NCBI GenBank assembly: GCA_964016885.1
Contig: OZ024740.1
Coordinates: forward strand, 163,928,001 to 163,992,000
Origin: Eledone cirrhosa
Lineage: Eukaryota
Direction: 5' to 3'
Length of the DNA: 64,000 bases
The notes beneath the pieces are model-generated. The model made no database searches. It was not told the DNA's origin and saw only the letters and a list, made by a program, of their open reading frames with translations. Position numbers and translations under genes: made by a program. Of this stretch, positions 4,883 to 48,269 are shown one piece after another (position 1 is the stretch's first letter; every line of letters begins with the position of its first letter).

Positions 4883-4954
<72 letters not shown>
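4883..4954. repeat. (TATC)n tract, left boundary of the Tx1 array
   Basis: About 18 perfect TATC units directly before Tx1 copy 1. Confidence 0.95.
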
Positions 4955-4959
<5 letters not shown>

Positions 4960-5168
4960 GTCTAACGTGTGGAATATCGCCGGTAAGTTTTTTGTTAATT
5001 TCTATGCAAAAAACCGATCTAATTGTTTGAAAAAAATACAACACTTTGTAGATTAACCCCCAAGCTGAATTGTCAGCTGGGTGGTAATCCCATTTTTCGC
5101 CCCTGTAGGGGCGAAAATTTTATTTAAAAGTTTGTCTTAAAATATCAAATTTTACAAAGTAAAAACAC

Positions 5169-7046
5169 TTGAGCAACACTAGAACGCTGGAGAACGTTAA
5201 TAGTGAAAAGAGAGAGAAAGAGGCAGATATTAACGTTATATCTGCTTCTGCTGCTATGGACGTTGCCATAGATACTGTCACAAAAGAAAAAAATATATCA
5301 ACATTTGAAAATGTTACAATTTCTACCGCCGAAGCGGAGAAAAATGACAATAACACACGGGAAAACACGGCAAAAAAACCCATTGACATACATACACATG
5401 AAAAAGACATCAACAACTCTACAGATACATCTACACATAAAATTTCCAACAACGATAAGATCATTATCAACAACAACATCACACAAAAAAAGAAAATGTC
5501 TTTTGCTGACACAGTCAACAAGAAACAAGATTTTATAAATTTTGATATCTCCAACGCAAGAGATATGCTCCAGCAAGGGAGAAAATTTGTAACTTTCGAA
5601 GAAAGAGGTGGGTTTAGAATTAACTCACCCCTTGAAATAAAGGAAGACACAAACCGCCGATCAGTCACTTTTAGGACTGTGTCAAATTCGTCAAGAAAAC
5701 CGACATTTGTTAATCAGTCAGATATAGAAGATTCTTTCAAGGAGATTCTAGCAAATGTCGATTTTCTCCAGCGAGGAAAACAGTACGGAAGTGTTTCCGT
5801 ACTGTTTAAAAGCGAGACACTGGCCCCAAAAAACTCTGTGACACCAATAGTGTCAAAAGCATACACCTTTTTCCCTACATACATGGGGAAAAGGACACAA
5901 AAAATAAAAATAAAAAACATACCTCCAAGCATTAACATCTGGTGGATCTTGGCTGGCTTCGTAGAGCCAGAAACAGACATAATACTTTCGATACTAAAAT
6001 CCATTCGACAAAGGTGGGCGGGCACCGATTTGGAGATTCTGTTGCAAATGAAACCGGAGAGAATCTCCAAAATACCCGAAAGAGTCGTTATTGATAATAA
6101 CAACAAAATAAACATTTCGGTAGAAGGAAGAAAATTTCACTGCTTTCGCTGTGGTAGCACATCTCACCTAAAAGCCTCTTGTCCACAAACAAACAACAGC
6201 AACATCATAAAAAAAACGCTATTACCAACACCAACACCAAAACAACCACCACCACCACCACAAGTACAACGACAGACGAAACGAGCAACCACACCAAAAC
6301 AAACAGACACTCAACCAACAACAACAGAAAAAACAGAGACAACACCCCTGAAGAACACATCCCCACTCCATCCCACTCCATCAAACACTACCACAAACAC
6401 ACATACCGAAACACCACCACCACCACACAACATACCCTTACCCCACACACCTAACGATGATTATTCATCGACGGATGAAGCTGCTTCTCCTTCTTTAAGT
6501 GAAGAAGAGGGAGAACCGCGGAAATCCAAAAAACAAAAAAAGAGACACCACAAAACCCCCAAAACTCCAATCACCAACACCAACACACAACCACAGACAC
6601 AAACAACAACACAAACACCACCACAGTCAAACACCCCCCTATCAGCAAAACCAGCACCAACACCACCCCAAACACAAGCACCCACCATAAAAAGAAAACT
6701 CCCAGATGAACAACAAACTAAAACAATACAACAAAAACACAAACAACAATACGCATACATCAACACAAACAACAAGAGTTTGATGGAGGTCATCTCCCAA
6801 AACCCCAAGGTGGAGACGGAGGGCAAAACTTTCGTCAAGGCAGAATCGTCTCCACACCTTAAACTTATAAGGGTTTCTATGGAAACCTATAAAGACCTGA
6901 AAATTAAATTTTCACAGGACGTGGGCAACCCCTGCCACAAACCCATCAACCGCGTCCTGTTGAAAGGTTTCCCCACCCCACCCAACACCCCATCCAGCAC
7001 CCAAATGGAGATTGAACAACCCGATCTCCAGGAAACGAAAAGGTAA
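5169..7046 (+). CDS. LINE ORF1 gag-like nucleic-acid-binding protein (open frame; TTG at the position of copy 2's ATG, first ATG ~5256)
   Basis: 625-aa ORF with zinc knuckle CFRCGSTSHLKASC, a Pro/Thr/Gln-rich region and a basic KKQKKRHH patch. Homologous ORFs in copies 2, 5 and 6. Confidence 0.85.
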   Translation: MSNTRTLENVNSEKREKEADINVISASAAMDVAIDTVTKEKNISTFENVTISTAEAEKNDNNTRENTAKKPIDIHTHEKDINNSTDTSTHKISNNDKIIINNNITQKKKMSFADTVNKKQDFINFDISNARDMLQQGRKFVTFEERGGFRINSPLEIKEDTNRRSVTFRTVSNSSRKPTFVNQSDIEDSFKEILANVDFLQRGKQYGSVSVLFKSETLAPKNSVTPIVSKAYTFFPTYMGKRTQKIKIKNIPPSINIWWILAGFVEPETDIILSILKSIRQRWAGTDLEILLQMKPERISKIPERVVIDNNNKINISVEGRKFHCFRCGSTSHLKASCPQTNNSNIIKKTLLPTPTPKQPPPPPQVQRQTKRATTPKQTDTQPTTTEKTETTPLKNTSPLHPTPSNTTTNTHTETPPPPHNIPLPHTPNDDYSSTDEAASPSLSEEEGEPRKSKKQKKRHHKTPKTPITNTNTQPQTQTTTQTPPQSNTPLSAKPAPTPPQTQAPTIKRKLPDEQQTKTIQQKHKQQYAYINTNNKSLMEVISQNPKVETEGKTFVKAESSPHLKLIRVSMETYKDLKIKFSQDVGNPCHKPINRVLLKGFPTPPNTPSSTQMEIEQPDLQETKR

Positions 7047-7087
7047 GTGCACCTTTCGTCCTTTTTCTCCAACTTTTCTTCACCAAC

Positions 7088-9797
7088 ATGGCTGGTTTAC
7101 GAGTTGGAACCGTGAATGTGCGTGGCCTAGGGATGCCCTGGAAACAGGGCCAACTTTTAAACGACCTTAGGTCACACAGTATGGATGTGATAGCCATCAC
7201 CGAGTCCAGAATCCACAACAGGCAGCAACTAACCCCCATCTTCGACGACTTTGAGATCTACGCATCTCTCTGTCAGCCAGGAGGTGGGGGTGGAGTGGCT
7301 GTTATGTTTCGGAAGAACCTGGACGTCGGAGTACAGCAAGTACACTTGGACCCGGAGGGTAGACTGGTAGTCCTAGACGTGAACAGTATCGGAGGTGGAG
7401 CCTTCAGACTAGTGGCCGTTTATGCCCCGACCGGGCAATCGCAATCACGGCCAGACTTCTTTAAGCGTCTAGAGTCTTTTCTGGGAACGTCTCGCTCCTT
7501 GCTTTTAGTGGGGGACTGGAATGGTATCCTAGATGCACGATGGGACTATGTGGGAGCATGTCCCAGTAGAGCGGGGTGCAACAGCCTCAAAACTTTAATC
7601 GGCTAATTCCAACTGGCCGATAGGTATCGACTGGATTTCCCGACTGCACCACAGTGGACGTGGGTAAACCGCAGTGGGACATCTAGATCGTATTTAGATA
7701 GGTTCTTCATTAGAGAAAGGGACAAGGATATGTTAAGCTGTCCACGAATGCACATGGTTGCCTATTCAGATCACAAGTTAGTCGTCTGCTTAGTCAACCG
7801 TGATAGAATACATAGACAGGGTTCCGGATACTTGAAGCTGAACGTGTCGTTGCCGGCACGTAAAGCTTACAGTGAACGGATAAGTAAACTAGTCAAGCAA
7901 CAGTTAACGGGAGCCATCGTCAACAATAGATGGTGGTACTCTCTCAAGAAAGCAATTAGAATAGAATCGATAGGGTATAGCAGAGAGTTAGCCTTAGAGA
8001 AAAACAGAATAGAAAGAGAACTAGTAGCCAAGGTAGAGGAGGCACTTAGAAGTGGCAACGCGGCTAGAGTGTTAGCGTCGAGAACGGCACTGGACCAGTT
8101 CTTCGATGCGAAACACGAAGGCTGCGTGGTCAGAAGCAAAACACGTGCTCTAGGAAACGAAGGAGCGAAAGCTGTCAGCTGGGCCCGAGTGGTGGAGGCA
8201 AAAAGTGGCAACAAGTCCACGATTCGGTCTTTGAAAGACCAAAACGGACGCGTGCTACTTGACCCCAAGCAAATGTGCGCGGCCTTTCAGCGGCACTTTG
8301 CGCGACTGTTTGAGCAGAACGACGGTGAGCCGAACGGGGCAATGGACTTTAGTTCATACCTCGACGGCCTGCCGCGTCTCTCGAACACGGACGCCGAGTT
8401 CTGCGAAAGACCGATCACGGACACTGAGATACGGGACGCTCTGGGCCGCTGTGGGAAACGCAAGTCACCCGGTCTAGATGGTCTACCCTACGAATTTTAC
8501 ATAGGCATGCCGGACTTGTTCTCTGGCGTCCTCGAAGCCGTCTACTGCAATTGGCAGCAGAACGGAAGAATTCCCAGTTCTGCAGGCAAGGGCGTAGTAA
8601 CGCTGATCAGGAAAGACGAGAACAAGGGGGACGAAATTAACAACTTCAGGCCCATAACTCTGCTCAACACAGAGTTAAAGATTTTGGCCAAGGTGCTAGC
8701 GACGAGGTTGGCGCTTGTCGTCGAGAACCTGGTAGGGAAAGCGCAAACGTGTGCAATCCCGACCAGGTCCATACACGACAACCTCCACCTCATGCGATAC
8801 ATCATAGAGAGGGTGGGTAGTAAACCCGGCTTCGGTGGGGCTCTGATCAACTTGGATCAGTCTAAGGCATTCGATAGGGTCGACCATCGATACTTGGAAG
8901 CGGTTCTCAAGGCGGCCGGTTTCGGTCCCGTGTTCAGGGGATGGATCGAGGCGATGCACACCAGCATCTGCTCGAGGGTCAAGGTGAACGGCTACCTATC
9001 GGAGCCGTTCGCAATCACGCGTTCCATTCGACAGGGATGCCCTCTCTCCTCCATTCTGTATGTATTGACTCTAGAGCCACTACTGCGGAAATTGGAGCTG
9101 TTGCAGGGCATCCCCCTAGAACCGGGACTGCGCAAAGCGGCGTCGGCTTATGCCGACGACGTGACAGTAATGGTGTCGAGCACCTCGGAAATCGGGGTGA
9201 TCGGCAACATACTGAAAGAATACGAAACGCTGACGGGAGCAAAACTAAACCCAGATAAGTCTGTCGGTTTGCAACTCGTAACGTGGAGAGGCAAACCGAT
9301 GACATCCGACAGCGTCGTTGGACGCTGGACGGACGGACCGGTGAAATTGCTCGGGGTCTGGTTCGGTCCAGACCTCCAGGTGGAGAAAAACTGGAACGAG
9401 GTCACGGCCAAGGTGTTTGCACTCACTCAGAAGTGGGCAGAGTGCAAACTGTCCTTGAAAGGTCGAGCGGAGGTGGCGAACACTTTCATAGCGTCCGTCA
9501 TCTACTACCGCTTGACTGTCGTGCCTTGTCCCCGTGAACACCTCGCCAAGATGCTCTTCCAGTTTCTGTGGAAGAAGCAGGCTCCGCTGGTGAGGAGATC
9601 CGTCTGCTGTCAGCACCCTTCCAACGGAGGGCTGGGAATGCCGTGGCTAATGATGCGCAAACATGCGCTGAGGCTGCGGCATCTCCAGGTATTCCTCACC
9701 GACCCCCAACCGGTGTGGGCACCGTTTGTGAGACAGGTGGGTGAATGAAGCGAAAATGGCCCGAGTGATTGGGCCTTCTCTGTTTATAAGCCTGTAG
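7088..9797 (+). pseudogene. LINE ORF2 (APE endonuclease + reverse transcriptase), inactivated
   Basis: APE motifs NVRGL, ITES, VYAP, GDWN, YLDR, SDHK; RT motifs QGCPLS, YADD. In-frame stop at 7604-7606 (CAA in copy 2) and a ~728 bp deletion at 9736/9737 that removes the C-terminal CCHC. Confidence 0.9.
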
Positions 9798-10030
9798 GTT
9801 GAGGAAGAGAGCAAAAGGAAGAAAGGAGCACTTGCACAACACGCCCCTGGAGTTGAGGGTTGTTCTATCGACGGGGTATTAAACAACCCATTTGTGGCGC
9901 CTCCCCCCTATTGGGGATTTCGATTGTTGAAATTGTTTGTTTTTATATTTTTTACACGACTGTATGTAAAATCCCCGGCATGTCTTTGTATTGTCCCCTT
10001 TCTTGTTGCGCCCTTGTGGCTAATAAAGAA

Positions 10031-10031
<1 letters not shown>

Positions 10032-10128
<97 letters not shown>

Positions 10129-10139
10129 ATCTCTCTCTC
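10032..10139. repeat. (TCTA)n spacer between Tx1 copies 1 and 2
   Basis: About 24 TATC units followed by a short (CT)n. Confidence 0.95.
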
Positions 10140-13100
10140 TTTCTGCCTGACGCGTGGAACATCGCCGGTAAGATTTTTTATAAATTTATATACGAAAAAG
10201 AGAACAAATTGTTTGAAAAAACATATTTTTTTGTAGATTAACCTCCAAGCTGAATTGTCAGCTAAATTTAATTTAAAAATTGTTTTTAAAATATCAAATT
10301 TTGCAAACTATAAAATATGAATAACACGAAGGGAACGCTGGAGAACGTCAATAGAGAAAAGAGAGAGAAAGAGGCAGATTTTAACGTTATATCAGCTTCT
10401 GCTACTATGGACGTCGTCATAGATACAACTGTCAACAAAGAGGAAAAAATGTTACCACTCGAAAATTGTACAATTTCTACCGTCGAAGCGGAGAAAAATA
10501 ACACTAACTCACATGAAAACACAGAAACATACATGCACATGAAAAATACATCAACAACTCCACAGATACATCTACACTTAATGTTTCACCTCGTCAAGGA
10601 ACTGAGATTTCCAACACCGAGGCTAACAACGATAACAACAACAACCACAGCAACACCACACACAAAAAAGAAAATGCCTTTCGCTGAAACTGAACAAAAA
10701 ACAAGATTTTATAAATCTTGACATCTCCAATGCAAGAGATATGCTCCAGCAAGGGAGAAAATTTGTAACTTTCGAAGAGAAAGGTGGATTTAGAATGAAC
10801 TCACCCCTTGAAATAAAGAAAGACACCGTTCGAAGATCAGTCACCTTTAGGACTGTGTCCAATTCCACGGGAAAGCCGATATTTGTTAGTCAAGTAGATA
10901 CTTTCAAGTAGCGACTCTCAAGGAAATTCTAGCAAATATCCATTTTCTCCAACGAGGAAAACAGTACGGAAGTGTTTCAGTACTGTTTAAAAGCGAGGCA
11001 CTCGCCCTAAAATATTCTGTGACACCAATGGCGTCAAAAGCATTCACCTTTTTTCCTACATACATGGGAAAAAGGACACAAAAAATAAAAATAAAAAATA
11101 TACCCCCAAACATTAACATCTGGTGGATCTTGGCTGGCTTCGTAGAGCCAGAAACTGATATGATTCTTTCGATACGAAAGTCTATTCGACAAAGGTGAGC
11201 GGGTACTGATTTGGAGATTCTGTTGCAAATGAGGCCAGAGAGAATCTCCAAAATACCCGAAAGAGTCGTCATCGATGATAACAACAAAATAAACATTTCG
11301 GTAGAAGGACGAAAATTTCATTGCTTTCGCTGTGGTAGCACAGCACACCTAAAAGCCTCTTGTCCTTCACAAACACACAACAACAACATCATTAAAAAAA
11401 CACTATTACCAACACCAACACCAAAACAACAACCACCATCACAAGTACAACGACAGACGAAACGAGCAACCACACCAAAACAAACAGACACTCAACCAAC
11501 AAAAACAGAAAAAACAGAGACAACACTCCTGAAGAACACAGCCCCACCTCATCCCACTCCATCAAACACTACCACAAACACACACACCGAAACACCACCA
11601 CCACACAACATACCCCTACCCCACACACCTGACGATGATTATTCATCGACGGATGAAGCTGCTTCTCCTTCTTTAAGTGAAGAAGAGGGAGAGCTTCGGA
11701 AATCTAAAAAACAAAAAAAAGAGACACCACAAAACCCCCAAAACTCCAATCACCAACACAAACACACAACCACAGACACAAACAACACCACAGTCAAACA
11801 TCCCCCTATCAGCAAAACCAGCACCAACACCACCTCAAACACAAGCACCCACCATAAAAAGAAAACTCGCGGACGAACAACAAACTAAAACAACACAACA
11901 AAAACACAAACAACAATACGCATACATCAACACAAACAACAAGAATTTGATGGAGGTCATCTCCCAACACCCCAAGGTGGAGACGGAGGGCAAAACTTCC
12001 GTCAAGGCAGAATCGTCTCCACACCTTAAACTTATAAGGGTTTCTATGGAAACCTATAATTACCTAAAAAATAAATTTTCACAGACGTGGGCAACCCCTG
12101 CCAGAAACCCATCAACCGCGTCCTGTTAAAATGTTTCCCCACCCCACCGAACACCCCATCCAGCACCCAAATGGAGATTGAACAACCCGATCTCCAGGAA
12201 ACGAAAAGGTAAGTGCACCTTTCGCCCTTTTTCTCCAACTCTTCTTCACCAACATGACTAGTTTACGAATTGGAACCGTGAATGTGCGTGGCCTAGGGAT
12301 GCCCTGGAAACAGGGCCAACTTTTAAACGACCTTAGGTCACATGGTATGGATGTGATAGCCATCACCGAGTCCAGGATCCACAACAGGTAGCAACTAACC
12401 CCCATCTTCAACGACTTTGAGATCTACGCATCTCTCTGTCAGCCAGGAGGTGGGGGTGGAGTGGTTGTCATGTTTCGGAAGAACCTCGACGTCGAAGTAC
12501 AGCAAGTACACATGGACCCGGAGGGTAGACTGGTAGTCCTAGACGTGAACAGAATTGGAGGTGGAGCCTTCAGACTGGTGGCCGTTTACGCAATCACGGC
12601 CAGACTTCTTTAAGCGTCTAGAGTCCTTTCTGGGAACGTCTCGCTCCTTACTTTTAGTGGGGGACTGGAATGCACAATGGGACTATGTGGGAGCATGTCC
12701 CAATAGAGCGGGGTGCAACAGCCTCAAAACTTTAATCGGCCAATTCCAACTGGCCGATAGGTATCGACTGGATTTCCCGACTGCACCACAGTGGACGTGG
12801 GCAAACAGCAGCGGGACATCTAGATCGTATTTAGATAGGTTCTTCATTAGAGAAAGGGACAAGGAGATGTTAAGCTGTCCACGAATGCACATGGTTGCCT
12901 ATTCAGATCACAAATTAATCGTCTGCTTAGTCAACCGTGATAGAACATACAAACAAGGACCCGGATACTGGAAGCTAAACGTGTCGTTGCCGGTACGTAA
13001 AGCTTAAAGTGAACGGATAAGTAGACTAGTCAAGCAACAGTTAACAGGAGCCATCGTCAACAATAGATCGTGGTACTCTCTCAAGAAAGCAATTAGAATC

Positions 13101-15885
13101 GAATCGATAGGGTTTAGCAGAGAGTTAGCCTTAGAGAAAAACAAACTAGAAAGAGAACTAATAGCCAAGGTAGAAGAGGCACTTAGAAGTGGTAATGCGG
13201 CTAGAGTGTTAGTGTCGAGAACGGCACTGGACCAGTTCTTCGATGCGAAACATGAAGGCTGCGTGGTCAGAAGCAAAACATGTGCTCTAGGAAATGAAGG
13301 AGCGAAAGCTGTCAGCTGGGCCCAAGTGGCGGAGGAAAAAAGTGGCAACAAGTCCACGATTCGGTCTTTGAAAGATCAAACGGACGCGTGCTACTTGACC
13401 CCAAGCAAATGTGCGCGGCCTTTCAGCGGCATTTTGCACGACTGTTTGAGCAGAACGACGGTGAGCCGAGCGGGGCAATGGACTTTAGTTCATACCTCGA
13501 CGGCCTGCCGCGTCTCTCGAACACGGACGCCGAGTTCTGCGATAGACCAATCACGGACACTGAGATACGGGACGCTCTGGGCCGCTGCGGGAAACGCAAG
13601 TCACCCGATCTAGATGGTCTACCCTACGAATTTTACATAGGCATGCCGGACTTGTTCTCTGGCGTCCTCGAAGCCGTCTACTGCAATTGGCAGCAGAACG
13701 GGAGAATTCCCAGTTCTGCAGGCAAGGGCGTAGTAACGCTGATCAGGAAAGACGAGAACAAGGGGGACGAAATTAACAACTTCAGGCCCATAACTCTGCT
13801 CAACACAGAGTTAAAGATTTTGGTCAAGGTGCTAGCGACGAGGTTGGCGCTGGTCTTCGAGAACCTGGTAGGGAAAGCGCAAACGTGTGCAATCCCGACC
13901 AGGTCTATACACGACAACCTCCACCTCATGCGATACATCATAGAGAGGGTGGGTAGTAAACCCGGCTTCGGTGGGGCTCTGATCAACTTGGATCAGTCTA
14001 AGGCATTCGATAGGGTCGACTATCGATACTTGGAAGCGGTTCTCAAGGCGGCCGGTTTCGGACCCGTGTTCAGAGGCTGGATCGAGGCGATGCACACCAG
14101 CATCTGCTCGAGGGTCAAGGTGCCGTTCGCAATCACGCGTTCCATTCGACAGGAGTGCCCTCTCTCCTCCATTCTGTATGTATTGACTCTAGAGCCACTA
14201 CTGCGGAAACTGGAGCTGTTGCAGGGCATCCCTCTAGAACCGGGACTGCGCAAAGCGGCGTCGGCTTATGCCGACGACGTGACGGTAATGGTGTCGAGCA
14301 CCTCGGAAATCGGGGTGATCGGCAACTTACTGAAAGAATACGAAACGCTGACGGGAGCAAAACTAAACCCGGACAAGTCTGTCGGTTTGCAACTCGGTAC
14401 GTGGAGAGGCAAACCGATGACGTCCGACAGCGTCGTTGGACGCTGGACAGACGGACCGGTGAAATTGCTCGGGGTCTGGTTCGATCCAGACCTCCAGGTG
14501 GAGAAAAACTGGAACGAGGTCACGGCCAAGGTGTTTGCGCTCACCCAGAAGTGGGCAGAGTGCAAACTGTCCTTGAAAGGTCGAGCGGAGGTGGCGAACA
14601 CTTTCATAGCGTCCGTCATCTACTACCGCTTGACTGTCGTGCCTTGTCCCCGTGAACACCTCGCCAAGATGGAACGCATGTTCTTCCAGTTTCTGTGGAA
14701 GAAGCAGGCTCCGCTGGTGAGGAGATCCGTCTGCTGTCAGCATCCTTCCAACGGAGGGCTGGGAATGCCGTGGCTGATGATGCGCAAACATGCGCTGAGG
14801 CTGCGGCATCTCCAGGTATTCCTCACCGACCCCCAACCGGTGTGGGCGCCGTTTATGAGACAGGCTTTCCCACAGCTCGTCTCGCTGACGGAGCTGCAGT
14901 CCTGGGTCAAGAAAAGACCGAAAACGATGGGCGCCTGGCACATTGAATGCGCTCAGGCGCTCACAGTCCTCTGGCAAGCGGGCGCAGCAATCAGTGGAGA
15001 CTCCACTTCGACATTCTATAGAGGGATTGTACGTTACAAGGGCGACGACGTGCTCGCAGAGACTCTGGGCGTCGAAGACGATGAGTTCACCAGTCTGTTT
15101 GGTAGGACTTTCCGCCCGGGACCTATGGACAACTTCCAGAGGTCCCTGGCCTGGCAGTGCTACCGAGGAGCTCTACCGGTTCGTGACAAGATCTACAGGC
15201 ACGGACGCCCTGGCAGGGATCCTTCCAAGAGGACGTGTCCAAGATGCGCGCAGGACATTGAAACAGTCCTGCACGTAATTGTACACTGCCCGGGCGTAAC
15301 CGACCTGTGGAACTATGCAGAACAACTGTTGTCGCGTATGGGACAAATCCAGTTGACTGCCGAGTCCATAGTAAGGATCAAACCGCCAACCTCTTTCAAA
15401 AACGAAAGAGAGGCGGTTTTCCTCTGTACGGTGGCTATGGTGAAAGAAGTTATATGGTGGACGAGGTTGAGAGGACTGAAGACAGATGCCTTTCTCTCCG
15501 GACAACAATTGATTCCCTTCTTTAAGTATCAATTTAGAAGGAGAATCAGAGTGGAGAGAGAGGCACTGGACCCCAGTAAATTTACTGAAAGGTGGGTGAA
15601 TGAAGCGAAAATGGCCCGAGTGATTGGGCCTTCTCTGTTTATAAGCCTGTAGGTTGAGGAAGAGAGCAAAAGGAAGAAAGGAGCACTTGCACAACACGCT
15701 CCTCGAGTTGAGGGTTGTTCTATCGACGGGGTATTAAACAACCCATTTGTGGCGCCTCCCCCCTATTGGGGATTTCGATTGTTGAAATTGTTTGTTTTTA
15801 TATTTTTTACACGACTGTATGTAAAATCCCCGGCATGTCTTTGTATTGTCCCCTTTCTTGTTGCGCCCTTGTGGCTAATAAAGAA

Positions 15886-15886
<1 letters not shown>
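10140..15886 (+). mobile_element. Tx1/L1-clade LINE copy 2 (subfamily A), full length, degraded
   Basis: Closely similar to copy 1. ORF1 10317-12212 and ORF2 12254-15652 carry frameshifts and stops. The 754-aa ORF 13388-15652 has RT plus C-terminal CPRC...H...C. Confidence 0.92.
12254..15652 (+). pseudogene. LINE ORF2 (APE-RT-CCHC), disrupted in its 5' third
   Basis: APE region broken by stops and small deletions. RT and CCHC lie in ORF 13388-15652. Confidence 0.88.
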
Positions 15887-15950
<64 letters not shown>

Positions 15951-16461
15951 CAAAGCGCCACCCTCCTTCAAAAACGAAGGGGAGGCGGCTTTCCTTTGTG
16001 TGATAGCTATGGCGAAAGAGGTTGTATGGTGGACAAGGTTGAAAGGGCTGAGGTCAGACACCTTTCTCTCCGGCCAACAACTGATTCTTTTTTTCAAATA
16101 CCACTTTGGAAGAAGAATCAGGATGGAGAGAGAGGTGTTGTACCCCAGCAAGTTTTATGAAAGGTGGGTGAAAGTGGCGAGAATGGTTCGAATGAATGGG
16201 CCTTCTCTCTATATCAGCCTGTAGGTTGAGGAAAAGGAGGAGGAGAGGAAGGGAGTACAAACTCTTCGTACTCCTGGAGATGAGGGTTGCACATTTTTTT
16301 CGGGGGTATGTGTTACCCATATAAACTGTCTCCCTCTATTGGGGAAAATCGACTAACTTTTTAAATTCCATTTGTGATAACATTTTACACGTTTTTATTG
16401 TATGTAAACTTCCCCCTTTGTATTTGTCCCCTTCTTTTGTGCCCCTGTGGCTAATAAAGAA

Positions 16462-16462
<1 letters not shown>
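15951..16462 (+). mobile_element. 5'-truncated Tx1 LINE copy 3 (ORF2 C-terminus + 3'UTR)
   Basis: Encodes ...PPSFKNEGEAAFLCVIAMAKEVVWW...GPSLYISL*, ends AATAAAGAAA, and has (TCTA)n on both sides. Confidence 0.9.
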
Positions 16463-16526
<64 letters not shown>

Positions 16527-16902
16527 CAAACCGCCACCCTCCTTCAAAAACGAAGGAGAGGCGGCTTTCCCTTGTGTGATAGCTATGGCGAAAGAGGTTG
16601 TATGGTGGACAAGGTTGAAAGGGCTGAGGTCAGACACCTTTCTCTCCGGCCAACAACTGATTCTTTTTTTCAAATACCACTTTGGAAGAAGAATCAGGAT
16701 GGAGAGAGAGGTGCTGTACCCCAGCAAGTTTTATGAAAGGTGGGTGAAAGTGGCGAGAATGGCCCGAGTGAATGGGCCTTCTCTCTATATCAGCCTGTAG
16801 GTTGAGGAAAAGGAGGAGGAGAGGAAAGGAGTACAAACTCTTCGTACTCCTGGAGATGAGGGTTGCACATTTTTTCGGGGGTATGTGTTACCCATAAAGA
16901 AA
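16527..16902 (+). mobile_element. 5'-truncated Tx1 LINE copy 4 (same 5' breakpoint as copy 3; 3'UTR deletion)
   Basis: Near-identical to 15951-16320. Most of the distal 3'UTR is deleted at an ATAAA microhomology. (TATC)n on both sides. Confidence 0.9.
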
Positions 16903-16928
16903 CATATCTATCTATCTATCTATCTATC

Positions 16929-19900
16929 TCGGAGAAGATAGACGTGTTTTTGTTTCGCTCCTGCATTTTGTCGGAATTCATTACGAGAAGCGAAGCGGTA
17001 GGTCTGTTTAAGTAATTTGTTATTTGTTGTGTTTAACCTCTCGCCTGGGCCTGCAGACGTTGGGTAAAATAAATTTCGCCCCCTTTTGGGGCGAAATTTA
17101 ATAGTTATAAGTTGTCGATAAAAAGTTGCTTAGTGACAATGGACCCATTAATACGACGCATACCACGCCCCCCCCCAAGGAAAGTGATAGATAGAAGGTA
17201 GCAGCACAACGCTATAAGCCTCCCTCCTCACTCCTGCAAAAGACACCACGGAATCAAAAGAAAAATTTGTGGAAATGGGTGAAAATCCCAAAAGTAACAA
17301 TTACACAAACAAGAACAACAATGACAATAACAACACAACCAACAACAGCAACAATAACAATAACAACACAACCAGCAACAGCAATAATCACAACACCAAC
17401 AAAGGAAAAAAGCAAGCCAACACGAACAACAACAATGATAACAACACGAAAGAAAACGGACCCACAGCTGCAGTCACTTTCGCACAGGCAGTCCGAGAAA
17501 CGCAGACATACAAGGCACTGGAGATCTCGAATGCCAAGAAATTGCTGAAAGAAGCAAGGAATTGTGTAAATTTTGGGGAAGGTGGGGAATTCACAATTAT
17601 CTCCCCCGAAGAAATTAGAAGGGACACAGTCCTCAGGACTGTAATCTTTAGGACAGTTTCGAACACGATTAGGAAACCGGTTCAATTGTCCCAAAGCGAA
17701 ATTGAGCTGGTCCTAAGTAGTGCCTGGAAGGATATCGCTTTCATACAGAAAGGGAAACTGTATGGAAGCATATCTGTTTTAATGCAAGATGAATTGGCGG
17801 CACGGAAATATTCTGCGTCGCCAATTGTATCCAATGCATACACCTTTTCCCCCACATATTTGGGGAAAAGAACTCCAAAGATAAGAATCTCGGGCATCAG
17901 GCCAAATGCGAGCATTTGGTGAGTGCTAACGGGATTCTTAGAAGATGAGGACACAATCCTTTCGATAGGCGAATCCACCGGGGGCGTATTCCGCGACAAT
18001 AGCCTTGAAGTTATGGTCCAAATGAGACCAGAACGGATAACAAGAATACCGCAGCGTGTGTCCCTGGATGGAGTCGCCTTCATAAACATTTCTGTTGAGG
18101 GCAGGCGGCCTTCATGTTACCACTGTTCAAGAAGTGGTCACCTGAGGGCTTCCTGTCCCCTTTTAAATGCCCCCCCCCCAAAGACGCTTCTGCCCACCCC
18201 ACACACAACAACACAACCACCACCACCACCACCACCACCACCACCACCACCACCACCACCACCACCACCACCACCACCACAACAACAACAACACGAAAAA
18301 ATAACAACACAAGACATTGTCCCACCCAACCCCTACCCACCTAAAACAAATACAAAAGCAACCACAACAAAACCCCAAAATATACCCCTCCCTCACAACA
18401 CGGACGAGGACCCCTTATCAACGTCACCCAGTGACGACGAGGGAGAACCCTTTCAACCTGTAAAAAGAAAGAAAAGAAGGCACCACATCAACAAAAATGC
18501 AACAAACACACAACCACCAGCACAAACAGAACAAACATCACAAACAAAAAAACCCACCCCTCCCCAAAACATAACACATACTACAAAACGCAAACACACA
18601 CAAGAACAACAAACAAAAACAAACACAACACAACAAAAACAGTATACATACATCAACACAAACAACAAAACACTTGTGCAAACAATAGACAAAGACCCTT
18701 CAGTGGAAACCGAAGGGAAAATGTTCACCAACGCGGCGACTAACCGCATTTAAAAATGATTAGGGTCCCAAGGGACACCTACGCAATGCTCAAACAGAAC
18801 TTTTCCGAGGACGTGGGGAACCCTTGTACTAGACCTAGCAACCGCGTCCTCTTGAAATGCTTCCCCACCACCACCCCAGACACCCCTCCTCCACCAAATA
18901 CTCCCACCCCACCACACACTGATATTCCCATCACATCCCAAACCACCACCCCACCAAACAACCCCGCCGACACCCCCATGGAAATTGTGCAGCCTGGTCC
19001 CCAGGAGAAGGACAGGTAAGTGTCTTTTCCTTTTTCTCCACTCTAAACTCTTCACCACCAACATGGCTGTTATAAGAGTTGGATGTTTAAATGTGCGCGG
19101 CCTGGGGATGTCCTGGAAGCAGGGCAAACTCTTAAATGACCTCAGGTAGCACAGAATGGTTGTGATAGCTATTTGCGAGTCCAGGATCAGCAGCGAGCAC
19201 CAACTGGCCCCAATCTTCGACGACTTTGGGATCTATGCATCTCTCTGTCAGCCGGGGGGTGGGGGCGGGGTGGTCGTTCTGCTGCGAAAACACTTGGGCC
19301 TCGGAACACGGAAGGTACACCTGGATCCGGAGGGTCGACTGGTGGTTCTAGACGTAGGGAGTAGTGAAGGTGGAGCCTTCAGACTGGTGGCAGCGTATGC
19401 CCCATCTGGGACACCGCGACCGGACTTCTTCCAACGCCTAGAGACTTTTTTGGGAACGTCTCGCTCCTTGCTTTTAGTGGGGGACTGGAATGGTATCCTG
19501 GATGCACGTTGGGACTATGTAGGGGCATGTCCCGATAGAGGGGGGAGGGGTGTAACAGCCTCAAACGGTTAATCGGCCGATTTGATCCGGCCGATAGATA
19601 TCGATTAGATTTTCCGACTGTGCCACTGTGGACGTAGACTAATATTAGCGGAACATCTAGGTCGTACCTAGATAGGTTCCTAGTTAGAAATAAGGATAGG
19701 GACATATTAAGCTGTCCACGAATGTTCATGGTTGACTATTCGGATCACAAGTTGGTGACCGGAGTGGTCAACCTTGATAGAACCCATAGACAAGGACCCG
19801 GTTACTGGAAGCTAAACTTGTCCTTACCGACAAACAAAGCTTACAGTAAGCGGATTAGCACTCTAGTTAAGCAGCGGTTGACGGGGGAAATTGTCAACAG

Positions 19901-22702
19901 CAGGTGGTGGGACTCTCTCAAGAGAGATATTAGAATAGAATCGATAGGTTTTAGTTAGGAATTAGCATCAGATAGGAATAGAACTGAAAGGGAATTGATA
20001 GATAGAGTAGAAGAGGCGATTAGGAGGGGCAACGTGGCCGGCGTGCTGGCGTCAAGAACGGCCCTAGACCAGTTCTTTGACGCGAAGCACGAGGGCTGTG
20101 TTGTCAGGAGTAAAATACGTGATCTGAGTAACGAGGGGGCCAAAGCTGTTAGCTGGGCCTGAGTGACAGAGGCAAAAAGTGGAAACAAGTCCACGATTCG
20201 GTCTTTGAAGGACCAGGATGGACGCGTGACCCTTGAACCTGGGCGGATGTGCGCGGCCTTTCAATGGCGCTTTGCACGACTGTTCGGGAGGGGCGGTGGG
20301 CCGGGTGAGGCCATGGATTTCGGTCCATACCTCGACGGTCTGCCGCGGCTCTCGGACGGGGAGGCTAAGTCCTGCGAAAGGCCGATTTCAGCCGCTGAAA
20401 TAGGGGAAGGGCTGAGCCTATGCGGCAAACGAAAATCTCCCGGTCTCGATGGTCTACCATACGAACTTTATGTAGCGATGACGGACTTGTTCTCCGATCT
20501 TCTCGAGTCGGTCTATTGCAACTGGCAACAGAACGGGAGAATTCCCAGTTCTGTGACCAAGGGCGTAGTCACGCTGGTGAGGAAGGACGAGAACAAGGGG
20601 GATGACATAGATAACTTCAGGCCCATAACTCAGCCCTAAACACAGAGTTAAAGATTTTGGCCAAGGTGTTAGCGAAGAGGTTGGCGCTTGTCGTCGGGAA
20701 CCTGGTGGGAGAAGCGCAGACATGCGCAATCCCGTCTAGGTCCATACACGACAACCTCACCTCATACGATACATCGTAGAAAGGGTAGGGAACGAACCCG
20801 GCTTTGGTGGGGCCCTCAGCAATTTGAATCAATCTAAGGCGTTCGATAGGTTCGACCATCGGTACCTGGATGCGGTGCTCGCGGCGGCAGGCTTCGGACC
20901 CGTTTTCAGGGGATGGATTGCTGCAATACACAGCAGCAACACCTGCTCGAGGGTCAAGGTGAATGGCTACATCTCGGAGCCGTTCCAAATCGCGCGATCC
21001 ATCCGACAGGGATGCCCTCTCTACTCCCTTCTGTATGTGCTGGCTCTCGAGCCACTACTGCGGAAGTTGGAGCTGATGCAGGGCATCCCGTTGGAACCGG
21101 GATTGCGGAAAACGGTGTCGGCCTACGCCGATGACGTGACAGTAATGGTGTCGTGCGCCTCGGAAATCGGGCAGATCGGTACCTTACTGGAGGAATACGA
21201 AAGGTTTACAGGAGCCAAGCTGAACCGGGACAAGTCCGTCGGTTTTCAACTCGGAACGTGGAGAGGCAAACCGATGCCCTCCGACGGCGTCGTCGGACGC
21301 TGGACGGAGGGACCGGTGAAGCTGCTCGGGGTCTGGTTCGGACGAGGTAACGGGCAGGGTGTTTTCACTCACCCAGAAGTGGGCCGAGTGAAACTATCCC
21401 TGAAAGGTCGAACGGAGGTGGCGAACACTTATATAGCGTCCGTCATCTACTACCGCTTGACCGTCGTGCCTTGCCCAGCGAAAACGCTCGCAAAATGGAG
21501 CGCGCGCTCTTCCGATTCCTTTGGAAGAAGCGGCCCCCTTTGGTGAGAAGATCCATCTGCTGTCAACACCCTTCGAAAGGAGGGCTGGGGATGCCGTGGC
21601 TGACAATTCGTAGACACGCATTAAGGCTGCGGCACCTTCAGGTATTCCTCACCCGTCATCCGGCGTGGGCCCCTTTTGTGAGGCGAGCCTTCTCGAGACT
21701 CGTCTCACTCACCGAGCTACAATCCTGGGTCAAGCAAAGACCGAGAAAAGTGGTCGACTGGCACATTGAATGTGCCCAGGCGCTCACGGCCCTCTGGCAA
21801 GTGGATCCGGCAATCAGTGGAGATTCAACCTCAACATTCTATAGAGGGTTGGTGTGCAGCAAGTGCGACGACGCTCTCGGAGAGGCTCTGGGCATGGAGG
21901 AAGACTGTTCGGTAGGACATTTGGCCTGGGACCGATGGACAACTTCCAAAAGTCCCTGGCTTGGCAGTGCTACCGAAGAGCTCTACCCGTTCGGGACAAG
22001 CTCTACAGACACGGGTGCCCGGGTAGGGACCCCTCGAAGAAGATCTGTCCGAGATGCGTGCGTGCGTGACGAGGAAACCGCATTTGTACACTGCCCGGGC
22101 GTTGCTGACCGTGGGGCTATGTGGAACGACTACTGTCGCGGGTGGGACCAATCCGGTTGACCACCGAGTACATTGTCACGATCAAATCGCCTCCCCCTTC
22201 AAAAACGAAGGAGAGGCGGTTTTCCTCTGTGTGATAGCTATGGCGAAAGAGGTTGTATGGTGGACGAGGTTGAAAGGGCTGAGGTCAGACACTTTTCTCT
22301 CCGGTCAACAACTGGTCCTTTTTTTCAAGTACCATTTTAGAAGAAGAATCAGAATGGAGAGAGAGGTGCTCTACCCCAGCAAGTTTTATGAAAGGTGGGT
22401 GAAAGTAGCGAGAATGGCCCGAGTGAATGGGCCTTCTCTCTATATCAGCCTGTAGGTGAAAGAGGAGAGGAAGGAGGAGAGGAAGGAGGAGAAGAAGGAG
22501 GAGAGGAAGGGAGCACCCGCTCTTTGTGCTCCTGAGGAGGAGGGATACACAATTTTTTCGGGGGTGTGTGCGATCTCTATTGAGGACTTCGATTATTGAA
22601 TTTGATTTTTATATGTTTTTACACGTCCCTTGAAATGTATGTAAACTCCCCCTCTTGTATTTGTCCCAATCTTTGATGCCCTGGTTGCAAATAAATAGAA
22701 AG
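16929..22702 (+). mobile_element. Tx1/L1-clade LINE copy 5 (subfamily B), full length, degraded
   Basis: Distinct 5'UTR. ORF1 ~17139-19019 (CYHCSRSGHLRASC knuckle, poly-Pro from CCA repeats) and ORF2 19063-22455 with many stops and frameshifts. Followed by (TATC)~4. Confidence 0.9.
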
Positions 22703-22784
22703 TTATCTATCTATCTATGGGCATCCTTATTCATACGTACACATACCCACACTCACTCACACACACCCAGACACACATATACAA

Positions 22785-22871
<87 letters not shown>

Positions 22872-23006
22872 ACTTTCTCTCTCTCTCACACACACAGAAA
22901 AACACTTTTCCCCCTAATTTTTTCAGAAGTTATGATTGTTACTACAATCTCCGAAGGTTCGTATTAAGTCAAATCCTCTCTACCAAAAACAAACGTATAC
23001 ACACAT

Positions 23007-25110: not shown

Positions 25111-25141
<31 letters not shown>

Positions 25142-25299
25142 CATATACATATACATACACATATATTAATAACAATAATAATAATAATAACAACAATAAT
25201 AATAACGACAACAACAACAACAATAATATACATATACATATATATATACACACACACGCACACACATAAACATATCTATACACACACACACGATAGCAA

Positions 25300-29600: not shown

Positions 29601-29673
29601 CTGGAGTTAACTTAACTGAACTTGTTTCTTCCTTATACGCCTTTATATTCAAAGCTGGTTTACTAAATATAAT

Positions 29674-35175: not shown

Positions 35176-36083
<908 letters not shown>

Positions 36084-38316: not shown

Positions 38317-38327
38317 GTATATATATG

Positions 38328-38378
<51 letters not shown>

Positions 38379-38383
38379 ATATA

Positions 38384-42840: not shown

Positions 42841-42883
42841 AGCAAATGATCATATAAGAGAACAATTGAGATAGATAGATATA

Positions 42884-45800
42884 TTTCTTTTATTTGCCAC
42901 TAGGGCATCAAAAGTGGGACAAGTACAAAGGGGGGAGTTTACACAAAAAGGCGTCCTCAATAAGGAGGAGGCAATAACAAAATATAAAAATAAAATAAGA
43001 TATAACAAAAAATAAAATTTTTAACAAAATCCTCAATAGAGAGGAGGCGCCTTGGGGGGTCGCACACACCCCCGAAAAAAGTGTGCAACCCTTCTCCTCA
43101 GGAGCACAGAGAAGGGGTGCTCCCTTGGTCTTTCATCTTCCTCACCTATAGTCTGATGTAGAGTGAAGGCCCATTCACACGGGCCATTCTCGCCACTTTC
43201 ACCCATCTTTCATAGAAACGGCTGGGGTGCAGCACCTCTCTCTCCATCCTGATCCTTCTTCCGAAATGATATCGGAAGAAACGGACCAGTTGTTGGCCAG
43301 AGAGAAAGGTGCCCGACCTCAGTCCTTTCAGACGCGTCCACCATACAACCTCTTTCGCCATGGCTATTACGCACAGAAACACCGCCTCTGCTTCATCTTT
43401 GAAGGGGGGAGGCGGCTTGATCATTACAATAGACTCGGTGGTCAACCGGATCGGTCCCACCCTTGACAGCAGTTGTTCGACATAGCCCCACAGATCGGCT
43501 ACGCCCGAGCAGTGTACTAATGCGTGTGCAACGGTTTCCTCGTCGCACACGCATCTGGGACAGATCTTTTTGGCGGGGTCCCTACCCGGGCGCCCGTGTC
43601 TGTAGAGCCTTTCTCGAACGGGTAAAGCCCCTCGGTAGCACTGCCAGGCCAGGGACTTCTGGAAGTTGTCCATAGGTCCCGGGCTGAATGTCCTACCGAA
43701 CAGGCTGGCCAGTTCGTCCTCCTCCATGTCTAGGGCTTCTCCGAGGGCGTCGTCGCACCTGCTGCGTACCAGCCCTCTATAGAATGTTGCGGTGGAGTCT
43801 CCACTGATAACCGGATCCGCCTGCCAGAGGGCGGTGAGCGCCTGGGCACACTCAGTGTGCCAGGCGCCCAGTTTTCTCGGTCTTTGCTTGACCCAGGATT
43901 GCAGCTCGGTGAGTGAGACGAGTCTGGGAAAGGTTCGTCTCACAAACGAGGCCCACACCGGTTGTCCGGTGAGGAATACGTAGAGGTGCCGTAGCCTTAA
44001 TGCGTGTTTACGCATCATTAGCCACGGCATCCCCAGCCCTCCTTTCGAAGGGTGTTGACAGCAGATGGATCTCCTCACCATAGGAGCCCGCCTCTTCCAA
44101 AGGAATTGGAAGAGCGCGCGCTCCATCTTGGTGAGGGTTTCCCTTGGGCAGGGCACTACGGTCAGGCGGTAGTAGATGACGGACGCTATGTAGGTGTTCG
44201 CCACCTCCGCCCGACCTTTCAGGGATAGTTTGCAACTGGCCCACTTCTGGGTCAGTGCAAACACCCTGTTCGTAACCTCCGCCCAGTTTTTCTCCACCTG
44301 GAGGTCCGGTCCGAACCAGACCCCGAGCAACTTCACCGGGCCCTCCGTCCAGCGTCCGACGACGCTATCGGAGGGCATCGGTCTGCCCCTCCACGTGCCG
44401 AGTTGCAAACCGATCGACTTGTCCCGGTTCAGCTTAGCCCCTGTGAACTTTTCGTACTCCTCCAGTAAGGTGCCGACCGCCTCGATTTCGGAGGCCGTCG
44501 ACACCATTACTGTCACGTCATCGGCGTAGGCCGACACCGCTTTCCGCAATCCCGGTTCCAAAGGGATGCCCTGCAACAACTCCAACTTCCGCAGTAGTGG
44601 CTCGAGAGTCAACACATACAGAAGGGAGGAGAGAGGGCACCCTTGTCGGATGGACCGCGCGATTTTGAACGGCTCCGAGAGGTAGCCGTTCACCTTGACC
44701 CTAGAGCAGATGCGGCTGCTGTGCATAGCAGTGATCCAGCCCCTGAAAACGGGTCCGAAGCCTGCCGCCGCTAGCACCGCATCCAGGTAACCATGGTCGA
44801 CCCTATCGAACGCCTTAGATTGATCCAAGTTGATCAGAGCCCCACCAAAGCCGGGTTCGTTCCCAACCCTCTCTATGATGTATCGCATGAGGTGGAGGTT
44901 GTCATGGATGGACCTGGACGGGATAGCGCATGTCTGCGCATCTCCCACCAGGTTGCCCACGACAAGCGCCAACCTCTTTGCTAGCACCTTGGCCAAAATC
45001 TGTAACTCTGTATTTAGCAGTGTTATGGGCCTGAAGTTACTTATTTCGTCCCCCTTGTTCTCGTTCTTCCTCACTAGCGTGACTACGCCCTTGGTCACAG
45101 TACAGGGAATTCTCCCGTTCTGTTGCCAGTTGCAGTAGACCGCCTCGAGGAGATCGGGGAACAAGTCCGGCATAGCTAGATATAATTCGTAAGGAAGACC
45201 ATCGAGACCCGGGGATTTGCGTTTGCCGCATTGGCTCAGCACGTCCTCTATCTCAGCGGCCGAAATCGGCTCCTCGCAGGACTTCGCCTCCCTGTCCGAG
45301 AGGCGCGGCAGGCCGTCGAGGTATGGACCGAAGTCCACGTTCCCAACCGGCTCCCCGCCCCTCCCGAACAGTCGGGCAAAGTGCCTTTGAAAGGCCTCAC
45401 ACATCTGCTTAGGCTCAAGAATCGCCCGTCCATCCAGGTCTCGCAAAGACCGGATGGTGGATTTAGTTCCACTGTTGGCCTCTGTCACGCGGGCCCAGCT
45501 AACAGCTTTGGTCCCCTCGTTCCCTAGAGCACGTATTTTACTTCGGACAACGCAGCCTTCGTGCTTCGCGTCGAAAAACTGGCTCAAAGCCGTTCTCGAC
45601 GCTAGCACTCTGGCCACGTCGCCGCTTCTAATTGCCTCTTCTACTCTATCTATTAGCTCCCTTTCCTTCCTATTCCTATCCGCAGCTAGAACCTTACTAA
45701 ATTCTATCGAGACTACTCTAATCTCTCTCTTTAGAGATACCCACCACCTGCTGTTGACGATCGCTCCAGTCAACCGTTCCTTAACTAACGTACTAATCCG

Positions 45801-46820
45801 ATTCCTGTAGGCTCTACTTGCCGGCAAGGACAAGTTGAGCTTCCAGTAACCGGGGCCCTGTCTATGAGTTCTGTCAAGGTTGACCATGCAGGTCACTAAT
45901 TTGTGGTCTGAATAGCCAACAATGCGCATTTTTGGACAACTTAAAAAGTCCTTATCCTTAATTCTAACTAAGAACCTATCTAGGTACGACCTAGATGATC
46001 CGCTACGATTTGCCCAAGTCCAGGTTGGCGCAGTCGGAAAATCTAGTCGATATCTATCGGCCAGGTCAAATCGACCGATTAACCCTTTGAGGCTATTACA
46101 CCCCTCTCTATCGGGGCAGGCCCCTACGTAGTCCCAGCGTGCATCTAGGATACCATTCCAGTCCCCCACTAATAGCAAGGAGCGGGACGTCCCTAGAAAA
46201 GTCTCCAGACGATGGAAGAAGTCCGGCCGCATTGACCCGAAAGGGCCGTAGGCGGCTACCAACCTAAACGCTCCGCCTTTACCACTGCCAAGGTCCAGAA
46301 CCACTAGTCGACCCTCCGGGTCCAAATGTACCATCTGTGTTGCGAGACCCAGATGTTTTTGCAGCAGAACGACAACTCCACCCCCCACCTCCGGGCTGAC
46401 AGAGAGATGCGTGCATCTCAAAGTCATCAAAGGTGGGGGCCAGCTGTCGCACGTTGCTGATCCGGGCCTCGCAAATAACCATCACATCTATACGTTGTGA
46501 CCTGAGGTCATTTAGAAGCATTGCTTGCTTCCAAGTTGAGCCCAGGCCACGCGCATTTAAACAGCCTACTCTTAGCATAGCCATGTTGGTGGTGAAGAGA
46601 AAAGGCACTTACCTCTCTGCGTCCCGGGTATCGGGCTGCACAATTTCCATTAGGGTGGGGGATGGGTTGTTGGGTGGGGTGGTGGTTTGTGGAAGTGTGG
46701 GGGCATCAGTGTGTTGTGTGGTTGGGGAGCTTGGAGTTGTGAGGGTGTTTGGGGAGGGGGTGGGATAGTTTTTTAGGAGGACGCGGTTAATGGGCCCGAC
46801 GCAGGGGGGACCCACGTCCT
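42884..46820 (-). mobile_element. Tx1/L1-clade LINE copy 6 (subfamily C), 5'-truncated within ORF1, inserted in a short (GATA)n
   Basis: ORF1 tail 46609-46820, near-intact ORF2 and 3'UTR ending AAATAAAAGAAA. GATA repeats at 42870-42880 and 46821-46838. Confidence 0.92.
43146..46584 (-). pseudogene. LINE ORF2 APE-RT-CCHC, single frameshift near 46385
   Basis: ATG at 46584 (MAMLRVGCLNARGL). After a frameshift in the poly-Gly codon run, the frame continues as the 1094-aa ORF with GDWN, SDHK, QGCPLS, YADD and CPRC..H..C. Confidence 0.9.
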
Positions 46821-48269
46821 AGATAGATAGATAGATAGAGAATTAACAAGCTAGACTTAGCTATCAGTAACATTCGGAGTTATAATAAAGGTTTAAATAC
46901 GAAATGAAAGAATGAAGAAGTTCAGAGGTGGCTCAAGAAAGGCATTTTTTATGTCATGCAGCTATCGTGGTTTGAAATTAGTGGTTGATGAGGGTGCAAC
47001 AAGTTGACAGGTAGCCACTTCATGTCTTGGTGCTCTCCAGTTGTTTTCTACCTCTCCTGGACGATAACATTTACTGCAAAACACGTTATCCGCCACATTG
47101 TAAAACCTTTATGTCAGACTGAATGGAAATGGAAATTGAAATGTGTCAAAACTATTAAATATAACATCTTTGGAAGCCGAGAACCTCTTTATGAACTTAA
47201 AAAATACTTGCTTCTGACCCTGCATTATGACATAAAGCAGAGTCTTGTATCACAAAAGATTATAGTTTTCTAGTAATAATGAATATCTGGTCTTAGGCAA
47301 GTCTGTTTTTTTTTGTAGTTTCATTAATTTTTAGTGTAGCTAATTATTTCATGGATTGTTGTGAAAATGGACGCGAAAGAACATTAACATCATTTAAAAT
47401 GATTCACAATAGAATTACTGTATATACTCGAATATAATTCGATCCAAATATAAGCTGACTATTTTATGACTGAAAAATGGTAAAAAAATACAAACTCCGT
47501 TTATAAACCGAGGCAGCTAATCAACATATGTTTAGTCGGCGTGGTTTTAAAATGCTCATGAGTATAGAATATATACATTGTTAGATTCATCTACAGGAAT
47601 AATTTATAGGACGTCATTCTAAATCCGTGGATTGCGTTATGAATAATAATTACGGTAGCTATAACTGGTCACAAGAGAAAGAAGATTTAGTAAACTGAAG
47701 CTTATAAAGACATATTTACAGTCATTCATGACACTAGGTTAAATTCTTGGGTATTTTCTTCAGAAGAAAATGATGTTTAAAGAAAGATAGATATAGATTA
47801 TGCTGTAAAAATATCTGCTGATTTAAAGACGGGAAGAAAAATGTTTCAAGTAGGATAGTATATATTTCCCAGCATCTTATCGTTTGGTCATATTTTTTAG
47901 TTTATTAAAAAATAATTAAACCTATAAGGTATTAATCAGGAAATTTTTAAAAACAAAAATGTATCGAGATCATTGTCAGTATTGCAGATAGATACGATCT
48001 CTCTCTTCCTTTCAGCTCTCTTAATTTATATTATTGAACAGATATAAAGCTATGATACTGTATTTGAACTGTTCTCTTTAGCTTGTATAATGTAATATAC
48101 ACTTTATTTCTACGTACAAACACAAACATATCAAACTTGTAAAGGCGCCTACATGCAGGTTGCTCAGAACACGAGCAACCCTAGAGCCGGCCATAACACA
48201 CACACACACACATACATATATTCATACATGCATAAATACATAATACATACATACATAGCCACATACATT

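Follow-up and report, generated by a model that had tools for sequence, protein, structure and literature searches.

Two Tx1 families of teleosts, Kibi and Koshi, target the microsatellites (TC)n and (TTC)n respectively (PMC4494074, PMC3812793), and crocodilian Tx1 families of the Tx1-1_Crp group prefer (TTCC)n or (TTTC)n (PMC4494074). In PMC4494074 a family is taken as target-specific when more than 20% of its flanks share one common sequence type; the main text of that paper contains no GATA or TATC target. The mechanism by which elements with an endonuclease of the apurinic/apyrimidinic type (APE) target microsatellites is not well understood, according to the review PMC3812793. A telomere-specific Tx1 element is cited in PMC10088271, and L1-Tx1 families, some of them recently active, are counted in the octopus repeat annotation of PMC13282606, whose portions examined give no insertion targets for them. 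A full-text literature search found no Tx1 family specific for GATA or TAA; Repbase, Dfam or article supplements may hold one. We analyzed a window of 64,000 nucleotides from Eledone cirrhosa (contig OZ024740.1, positions 163,928,001 to 163,992,000), which contains a 17.8-kb array of long interspersed nuclear elements (LINEs) separated by (TATC)n tracts. Our reading, to which we give a probability of about 85%, is that a lineage of the L1 group, likely of Tx1 type, occupies TATCT sites on one strand and forms head-to-tail stacks, a likely cause being that every insertion duplicates its site, so that new targets flank it on either side.

The 3' ends of the array pieces read AATAAA(TA)GAAA, then two variable letters (hereafter NN), then TATCT, with no poly(A). 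An exact 21-letter pattern of this end was counted across the genome. It occurs 13,789 times, which is a lower bound since two end types (those of copies B and D described below) escape the pattern; the reversed pattern, used as a control, gave 0 matches. NN-TATCT comes next in 11,638 cases (84.4%). Only 425 ends (3.1%) enter NN-TATATA, yet (TA)n tracts are about 36 times commoner than (AGAT)n tracts: a background sample of 40 stretches of 10 kb at fixed positions (400 kb) holds 364 (AT)n, 95 (AC)n, 39 (AG)n, 19 (AAT)n and 10 (AGAT)n tracts. Three of these 10 (AGAT)n tracts border a copy. Among 219 distinct ends studied at individual loci, none has a run of at least 8 A within 60 bp. A long microsatellite is not required and a short motif suffices, since 68 of the 117 ends at position-sampled loci are followed by at most two perfect TATC units. 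The initial annotation of this window, made from its letters, had proposed a lineage specific for GATA repeats: the TATCT target holds genome-wide, and the need for a long repeat is rejected.

The 5' junctions of truncated copies were then considered. The same 219 ends comprise 22 whose element runs beyond the locus, 17 unresolved cases, 2 with no reference, 11 full-length copies and 167 truncated copies. Removal from the latter of 31 copies whose upstream sequence is still element (internal rearrangements) and 5 of a sister family leaves 131 tested. The initial annotation regarded a lack of TATC at most of these junctions as the sign that the repeat is only a tail. TATCT was found in 91 of the 131 (49/63 for young copies, 42/72 in the position-sampled subset), against 2/131 for the opposite-strand control. 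In the 400-kb background a random point has TATCT within 25 bp 3.2% of the time, which gives p ~1e-103 if the copies are taken as independent. Both types of flank (84% of the 13,789 3' ends, 69% of the 131 truncated 5' junctions) thus exceed the 20% used in PMC4494074. Full-length copies also start in TATC, in 27/30 loci of subfamily A and 30/30 of subfamily B (by eye, the window's own copy being included in each set); they were not counted as a test because these letters may be the element's own.

At or near unique DNA, plain duplications that start right after NN are present in L002, L005, L092, L097, L108, L109, L156, L165, L189 and L240, and a duplication was seen by eye in L219 and L125. 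In this dozen of clear copies the duplication is about 8-19 bp long. NN equals the two letters before the upstream duplicate in only 11 of 37 cases; as the two usually differ, NN belongs to the element. Four copies (L002, L125, L165 and L219) directly join a TATAT, AATCT or TATAA site with no TATC added, so the element brings no TATC tail. The young copy L092 landed at TATCTA within a satellite of about 45 bp and has a duplication of 10-11 bp.

The TATC tracts and LINE pieces of the window were mapped by tandem-repeat and self-comparison runs, which place (TATC)n tracts at 4883-4954, 10031-10126, 15886-15949, 16462-16525, 16905-16928 and 22704-22715/18. With the limits of the copies taken into account, the array (4883-22718) and a further copy of the window are organized as follows.

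4883..4954, + strand: (TATC)18 tract, the 5' landing site of the array
4955..10033, + strand: copy A1, young subfamily, 5' boundary uncertain by about 10 bp
10034..10126, + strand: (TATC)23 tract
10127..15888, + strand: copy A2, full length with broken open reading frames (ORFs), ending AATAAAGAAA-TC
15889..15949, + strand: (TATC)15 tract
15950..16464, + strand: C1, 5'-truncated 3' fragment of subfamily C
16465..16525, + strand: (TATC)15 tract
16526..16904, + strand: C2, likely a local duplicate of C1, with an internal deletion of about 140 bp before the 3' end
16905..16928, + strand: (TATC)6 tract
16929..22703, + strand: copy B, full length with frameshifted ORFs, ending AATAAATAGAAA-GT
22704..22718, + strand: 15-bp TATC run at the 3' end of the array
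42870..42881, - strand: TATC run beyond the 3' end of copy D
42882..46821, - strand: copy D, the sixth copy, 5'-truncated
46822..46837, - strand: (TATC)4 run, at copy D's 5' junction

The five pieces of the array all lie on the + strand with nothing but (TATC)n between them, as the initial annotation had described, and its description of 3' ends without poly(A) also holds; its inventory, correct for the array, missed copy D. It counted subfamily A twice, which is right for the 3' ends of A1 and A2 (99-100% alike), but the two carry different 5' ends, since they differ by ~14-16% over the first 900 aligned columns. The two short fragments that it listed are indeed present and 5'-truncated. They form a third subfamily, C, only 80-85% like A2, and are likely one insertion followed by a local duplication, because they have a common 5' breakpoint (with 8 differing positions between them) and a private base absent from 35/35 other C copies. 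The deletion in C2 leaves the 3' end ATAAAGAAA-CA-TATCT. The array would then likely represent four insertions, of which B is the oldest and A1 among the youngest, plus one local duplication, and not five independent insertions. A1 diverges by 1.0% from its nearest relatives, A2 by about 2% (3' part) and B by 3.4% (over its 5' 2 kb). ORF1 of A1 is open (5163-7046, 627 codons stop to stop, with a CCHC knuckle), and two lesions break its ORF2: an in-frame stop near 7605 and the loss of ~730 bp near 9735. The length of the last TATC run (22704..22718) fits a target-site duplication. Copy D is very young, 0.2% from L186; its long ORF2 frame (43146-46481) matches endonuclease, reverse transcriptase (RT) and zf-RVT, with a frameshift near the ORF2 start. 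The 64-kb window contains 8 TATC/GATA tracts of at least 3 units, six in the array and two around copy D, so that all 8 border a copy.

Two observations concern the 5' ends. That of subfamily B (16923-16945 in the window) reads CTATCT-CGGAGA-AGATAG, a short inverted repeat built on the target motif, and the 5' junction of L069 carries a longer fold-back (a GATA run), which may reflect self-priming of the complementary DNA. An Rfam search of positions 4800-23000 at E up to 1 returned no match, and hence found no ribozyme family at the 5' ends.

Stacking is routine, and the window array is one ordinary example of a genome-wide TATC-targeting lineage. At position-sampled loci a same-strand copy follows within 160 bp after 49 of 117 ends and an opposite-strand copy after 1, array members being somewhat over-counted here as every end in a sampled locus was used. 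In L109 the order of insertion is seen directly, as the second copy duplicated the TATC run of the first together with its unique flank. The likeness to telomeric arrays suggested by the initial annotation is only an analogy, because the array is not special and lies at 163.9 Mb of a 442.9-Mb contig (3.0-Gb genome); a telomere role is rejected, the array being interstitial and the copies dispersed across many contigs.

Relatives about 70% alike in DNA were found in the background stretches, and form a sister family with another target. Its copies end in GGTTAATAAAGAAA-NC-ATTATT. Of the 7,587 sister 3' ends counted, a lower bound for the genome, 6,627 (87.3%) continue as NN-ATTATT and 0 as NN-TATCT. 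Many truncated copies also have ATT at their 5' junction, and each of the 17 full-length starts examined is preceded by ATT. Arrays of 2-5 full-length sister-family units, in many of which both ORF1 and ORF2 are open, run head to tail at the following loci.

G000:C1:55421001-55461000 (L271-L274): array of the sister family
L275-L280: array of the sister family
L284-L289: array of the sister family

A unit often differs less from copies elsewhere than from its neighbour in the array (for instance 0.1% vs 0.8%), which argues for independent insertions. Sequential accumulation, proposed by the initial annotation, is supported by this result and by the differences in subfamily and age between the window's units; the clear duplications likewise support its claim that insertion duplicates the target.

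Other repeats were observed beside the target tracts of both families. A repeat starting ACAG(T/C)TGCATTTATCTTGC, about 860 bp long in one array, lies between (ATT)n tracts in L271-L273 (where it separates array units), L286 and L251; it may be a passenger that is non-autonomous, or a further repeat providing targets. At the unrelated loci L020, L127, L154 and L190, TTGATAGAGTAAGA comes after a TATC tract, which suggests another repeat that carries such a tract and is used as a target. A sequence with TTGGCAGTATCGGTAGAG, which we take to resemble the head of a tRNA-derived short interspersed nuclear element (SINE), often comes after the target tract of TATC and ATT copies (L014/L094, L219, L250, L257, L265).

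Several observations weigh against insertion by target duplication at TATCT. The 5' junctions of 40/131 truncated copies (30/72 in the position-sampled subset) have no TATCT within 25 bp of the called position; some of these, though not all, are visibly secondary breaks or later rearrangements. An automated count of imperfect duplications of at least 10 bp gave 29 among 135 junctions, and the random-pairing control gave 213/2,000, about half that rate, so that the case for duplication rests on the dozen clear examples. The leading TAT of the site may derive from the RNA or from the target, at most TAT being common to both. In one sister array an identical imperfect 44-bp tract precedes three copies; it fits repeated use of one site, but exceeds the usual duplication in length. 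Many CR1/L2 elements carry a repeat as their own 3' tail, and (TATC)n could likewise be such a tail, the arrays having arisen by chance, by tandem duplication or by template switching in one insertion. A tail would equally place TATCT after 84% of 3' ends, C1/C2 looks like a duplication, and in one sister array two units are followed by the same ~860 bp spacer. A tail predicts neither the TATCT of the 5' junctions, nor duplications that start at the element end, nor the tail-less insertions at non-TATC sites, and by these three results it is largely refuted; the units of arrays moreover differ in subfamily and age and are often closer to distant copies than to their neighbours. We therefore regard this explanation as improbable. 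The TATC repeat is the target and not only a tail, as follows from the 5' junctions, the position of the duplications and the lack of poly(A). That the 17.8-kb array is an assembly artefact, in which dispersed copies were joined through their TATC tracts, is more improbable still. All joins are indeed low-complexity tracts, and four read runs at 14900-17400 gave short contigs only, none of them spanning, with reads cut at the repeats. But each unit has a sequence of its own and the nearest relatives differ from unit to unit, the same arrangement is found at many other loci with a strict orientation (49 to 1), and the duplication of L109 carries the unique flank of the earlier copy.

The proteins place the elements in the L1 group of retrotransposons that lack long terminal repeats (non-LTR elements). 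In Pfam, ORF2 matches Exo_endo_phos and RVT_1 as well as zf-RVT, although the zf-RVT score falls short of the curated cut-off, and its best relative of solved structure is human L1 ORF2p (E 3e-47, 164 bits). The elements show the features expected of the group: ORF2 has an N-terminal APE endonuclease, an RT and a C-terminal zinc region, there are two ORFs and terminal repeats are lacking, and 5' truncation is seen along with duplicated target sites. Both frames are intact in L098, with 596 aa for ORF1 and 1148 aa for ORF2. In ORF1 a CCHC motif can be seen, with a weak Pfam match (E 0.14) and no match to Transposase_22; its look-alikes in the Atlas, at 0.90-0.92, carry zf-CCHC, RRM or ZCCHC3 RNA-binding domains. 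ORF1s of the CCHC/RRM type have been linked to Tx1 (PMC5203782). The nearest named fish and frog proteins are 25-28% identical and score 239-277 bits, compared to 164 for human L1; none is labelled Tx1, and some carry ZCCHC3-like RNA-binding domains with zf-CCHC. The best match of the endonuclease in the structural database is 2v0r, an L1 chimera with the Tx1L loop, and N-R-S-G aligns with the R-D-G-H tip of that loop; its margin over the plain L1 endonuclease is small (29.6 vs 27.3 bits). The type of ORF1, the higher fish and frog scores and the loop match are indirect signs of a likely membership of Tx1, and no named Tx1 protein was among the matches of the homologue searches and the cluster look-up. 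Metagenome relatives (80 loci kept of at least 473) are too distant and too short to be informative, their best segments sharing 22-37% identity with an unnamed relative; 13 of the 80 hold short repeats, with no consistent flanking microsatellite.

A quick tree was built from the RT region with 47 rows, all relatives being unnamed and two rows that lack the anchor motif being excluded. The TATC families form one clade in it (support 100 in the Shimodaira-Hasegawa-like approximate likelihood ratio test), next to the ATT family (99, based on only three rows). TATC families are 75-85% identical to one another in ORF2, and the TATC and ATT groups 67-68%. Only 20 of 252 endonuclease columns show a fixed difference between the two. 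One of these is Ser (TATC) versus Ile (ATT) in the loop before SRSYLDR, which aligns with the R-D-G-H tip of Tx1L in PDB 2v0r. The Tx1L loop is described in PMC1950540 as able to contact DNA, its flexibility being perhaps weightier than its sequence.

By analogy with target-primed reverse transcription, the APE endonuclease would nick the GATA strand and create a primer ending AGATA-3'. Cleavage of an RNA normally takes place 10-30 nt downstream of AAUAAA. Here just 6-8 nt separate this signal from the element end, and some UAUC units would thus be included in the RNA: it would be cut inside the flanking repeat with a few of them retained, and these would pair with the primer in such a way that copying starts at the exact element end and skips any poly(A). 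We hold these two steps, cleavage and pairing taken together, to be somewhat more probable than their opposite. A second-strand nick 8-19 bp away would make the duplication, and slippage would then lengthen the tracts. We favour an endonuclease that sets the target with help from the RNA, both nicking and pairing being predicted. Specificity might instead come mainly from the RNA: a loosely specific endonuclease would nick at many AT-rich sites, but extension would be confined to primers paired with a read-through tail of UAUC or AUU, and for the target to switch it would be enough that a master copy landed in another repeat. This agrees with the fixed end without poly(A), with the small number of fixed endonuclease columns and with the few ends in (TC)n, (TA)n or unique DNA, and the pairing of primer and RNA has been proposed for SART1Bm and R1Bm (PMC7265360). 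It agrees less well with the insertions at TATAT, TATAA and AATCT, which carry no RNA-derived TATC, and with a target that is stable along the protein tree: the TATC families are one clade over 75-85% ORF2 identity and the ATT family never enters TATCT. One fixed difference also falls in a loop which contacts DNA in L1. We consider control mainly by the RNA a real but clearly less likely explanation than a target set by the endonuclease with RNA help.

A broader scenario is put forward as tentative: an undescribed, recently active Tx1-type lineage would have diverged, inside a single genome, into branches specific for (TATC)n and (ATT)n, a few endonuclease residues, including the Ser/Ile loop tip, would set the switch, priming would proceed by read-through without poly(A), and the lineage would seed and lengthen a sizeable share of the GATA tracts (3 of 10 sampled), which would act as self-renewing landing pads. 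Both sister families have young copies with open reading frames, and their targets are mutually exclusive over more than 21,000 counted ends; control by the endonuclease or by the RNA is therefore testable by domain swaps. Such a natural pair likely suits tests of how a landing site is chosen, which bears on tools for site-directed gene insertion. The stacking of LINEs into arrays of 15-30 kb is common in this genome, and matters for assembly, repeat annotation and the design of GATA markers.

Other repeats are present in the window. Two related fragments on opposite strands (25021-25834 and 35474-36237, 75% alike) encode C2H2 zinc fingers and are probably remnants of LINE C-terminal regions. 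An RT fragment at 50996-51568 (- strand, Pfam RVT_1) is a likely transposon remnant, as are 52876-54432 (- strand), 37562-38578 (- strand) and 27868-29414 (+ strand), which are a frame of 518 codons and two further frames with no Pfam match at E 0.01. Repeats of 100-190 bp, 85-97% alike, on both strands and partly in tandem (29667-29848, 32774-33379, 50394-50534, 51849-52562, 55147-55288), resemble SINEs or miniature inverted-repeat transposable elements (MITEs).

The elements described here resemble Kibi and Koshi as APE-type LINEs that insert into a specific microsatellite. The target is different, TATCT/(TATC)n here and (ATT)n in the sister family, and the likeness is one of target habit. 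Koshi and Kibi targets are not those met here: only a few copies lie in (TC)n, the Kibi target, instead of (TATC)n (L055, L059, L138, L146, L196). The crocodilian Tx1 families share the preference for a tetranucleotide repeat, but for a different one. Tx1L of Xenopus likewise has a sequence-specific APE endonuclease, and its target is a DNA transposon. Same-strand insertion into short repeats with head-to-tail arrays is also known for SART1/TRAS, Tx1-1_ACar and Drosophila HeT-A/TART (PMC10088271), whereas the present arrays occupy interstitial sites, scattered by the thousand, and nothing points to a telomere role; poly(A) is present in SART1Bm insertions (PMC7265360) but not in these elements. 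Dong targets (TAA)n, the same repeat as the sister family (PMC3812793), but the R4 clade, to which the label Dong-R4 refers, uses a restriction-like endonuclease (PMC4640811) and the sister family has an APE domain. Human LINE-1 is similar in its two ORFs, in the APE, RT and C-terminal zinc region, in the 3' AATAAA, in target duplication and in frequent 5' truncation; it differs in its poly(A) tail and TTTT/AA target, and the ORF1 described here, which has a CCHC knuckle, does not match Transposase_22. Microsatellite targeting by a Tx1-type element is known in principle, and what appears to be new is the TATC variant of the target, with an ATT-targeting sister beside it.

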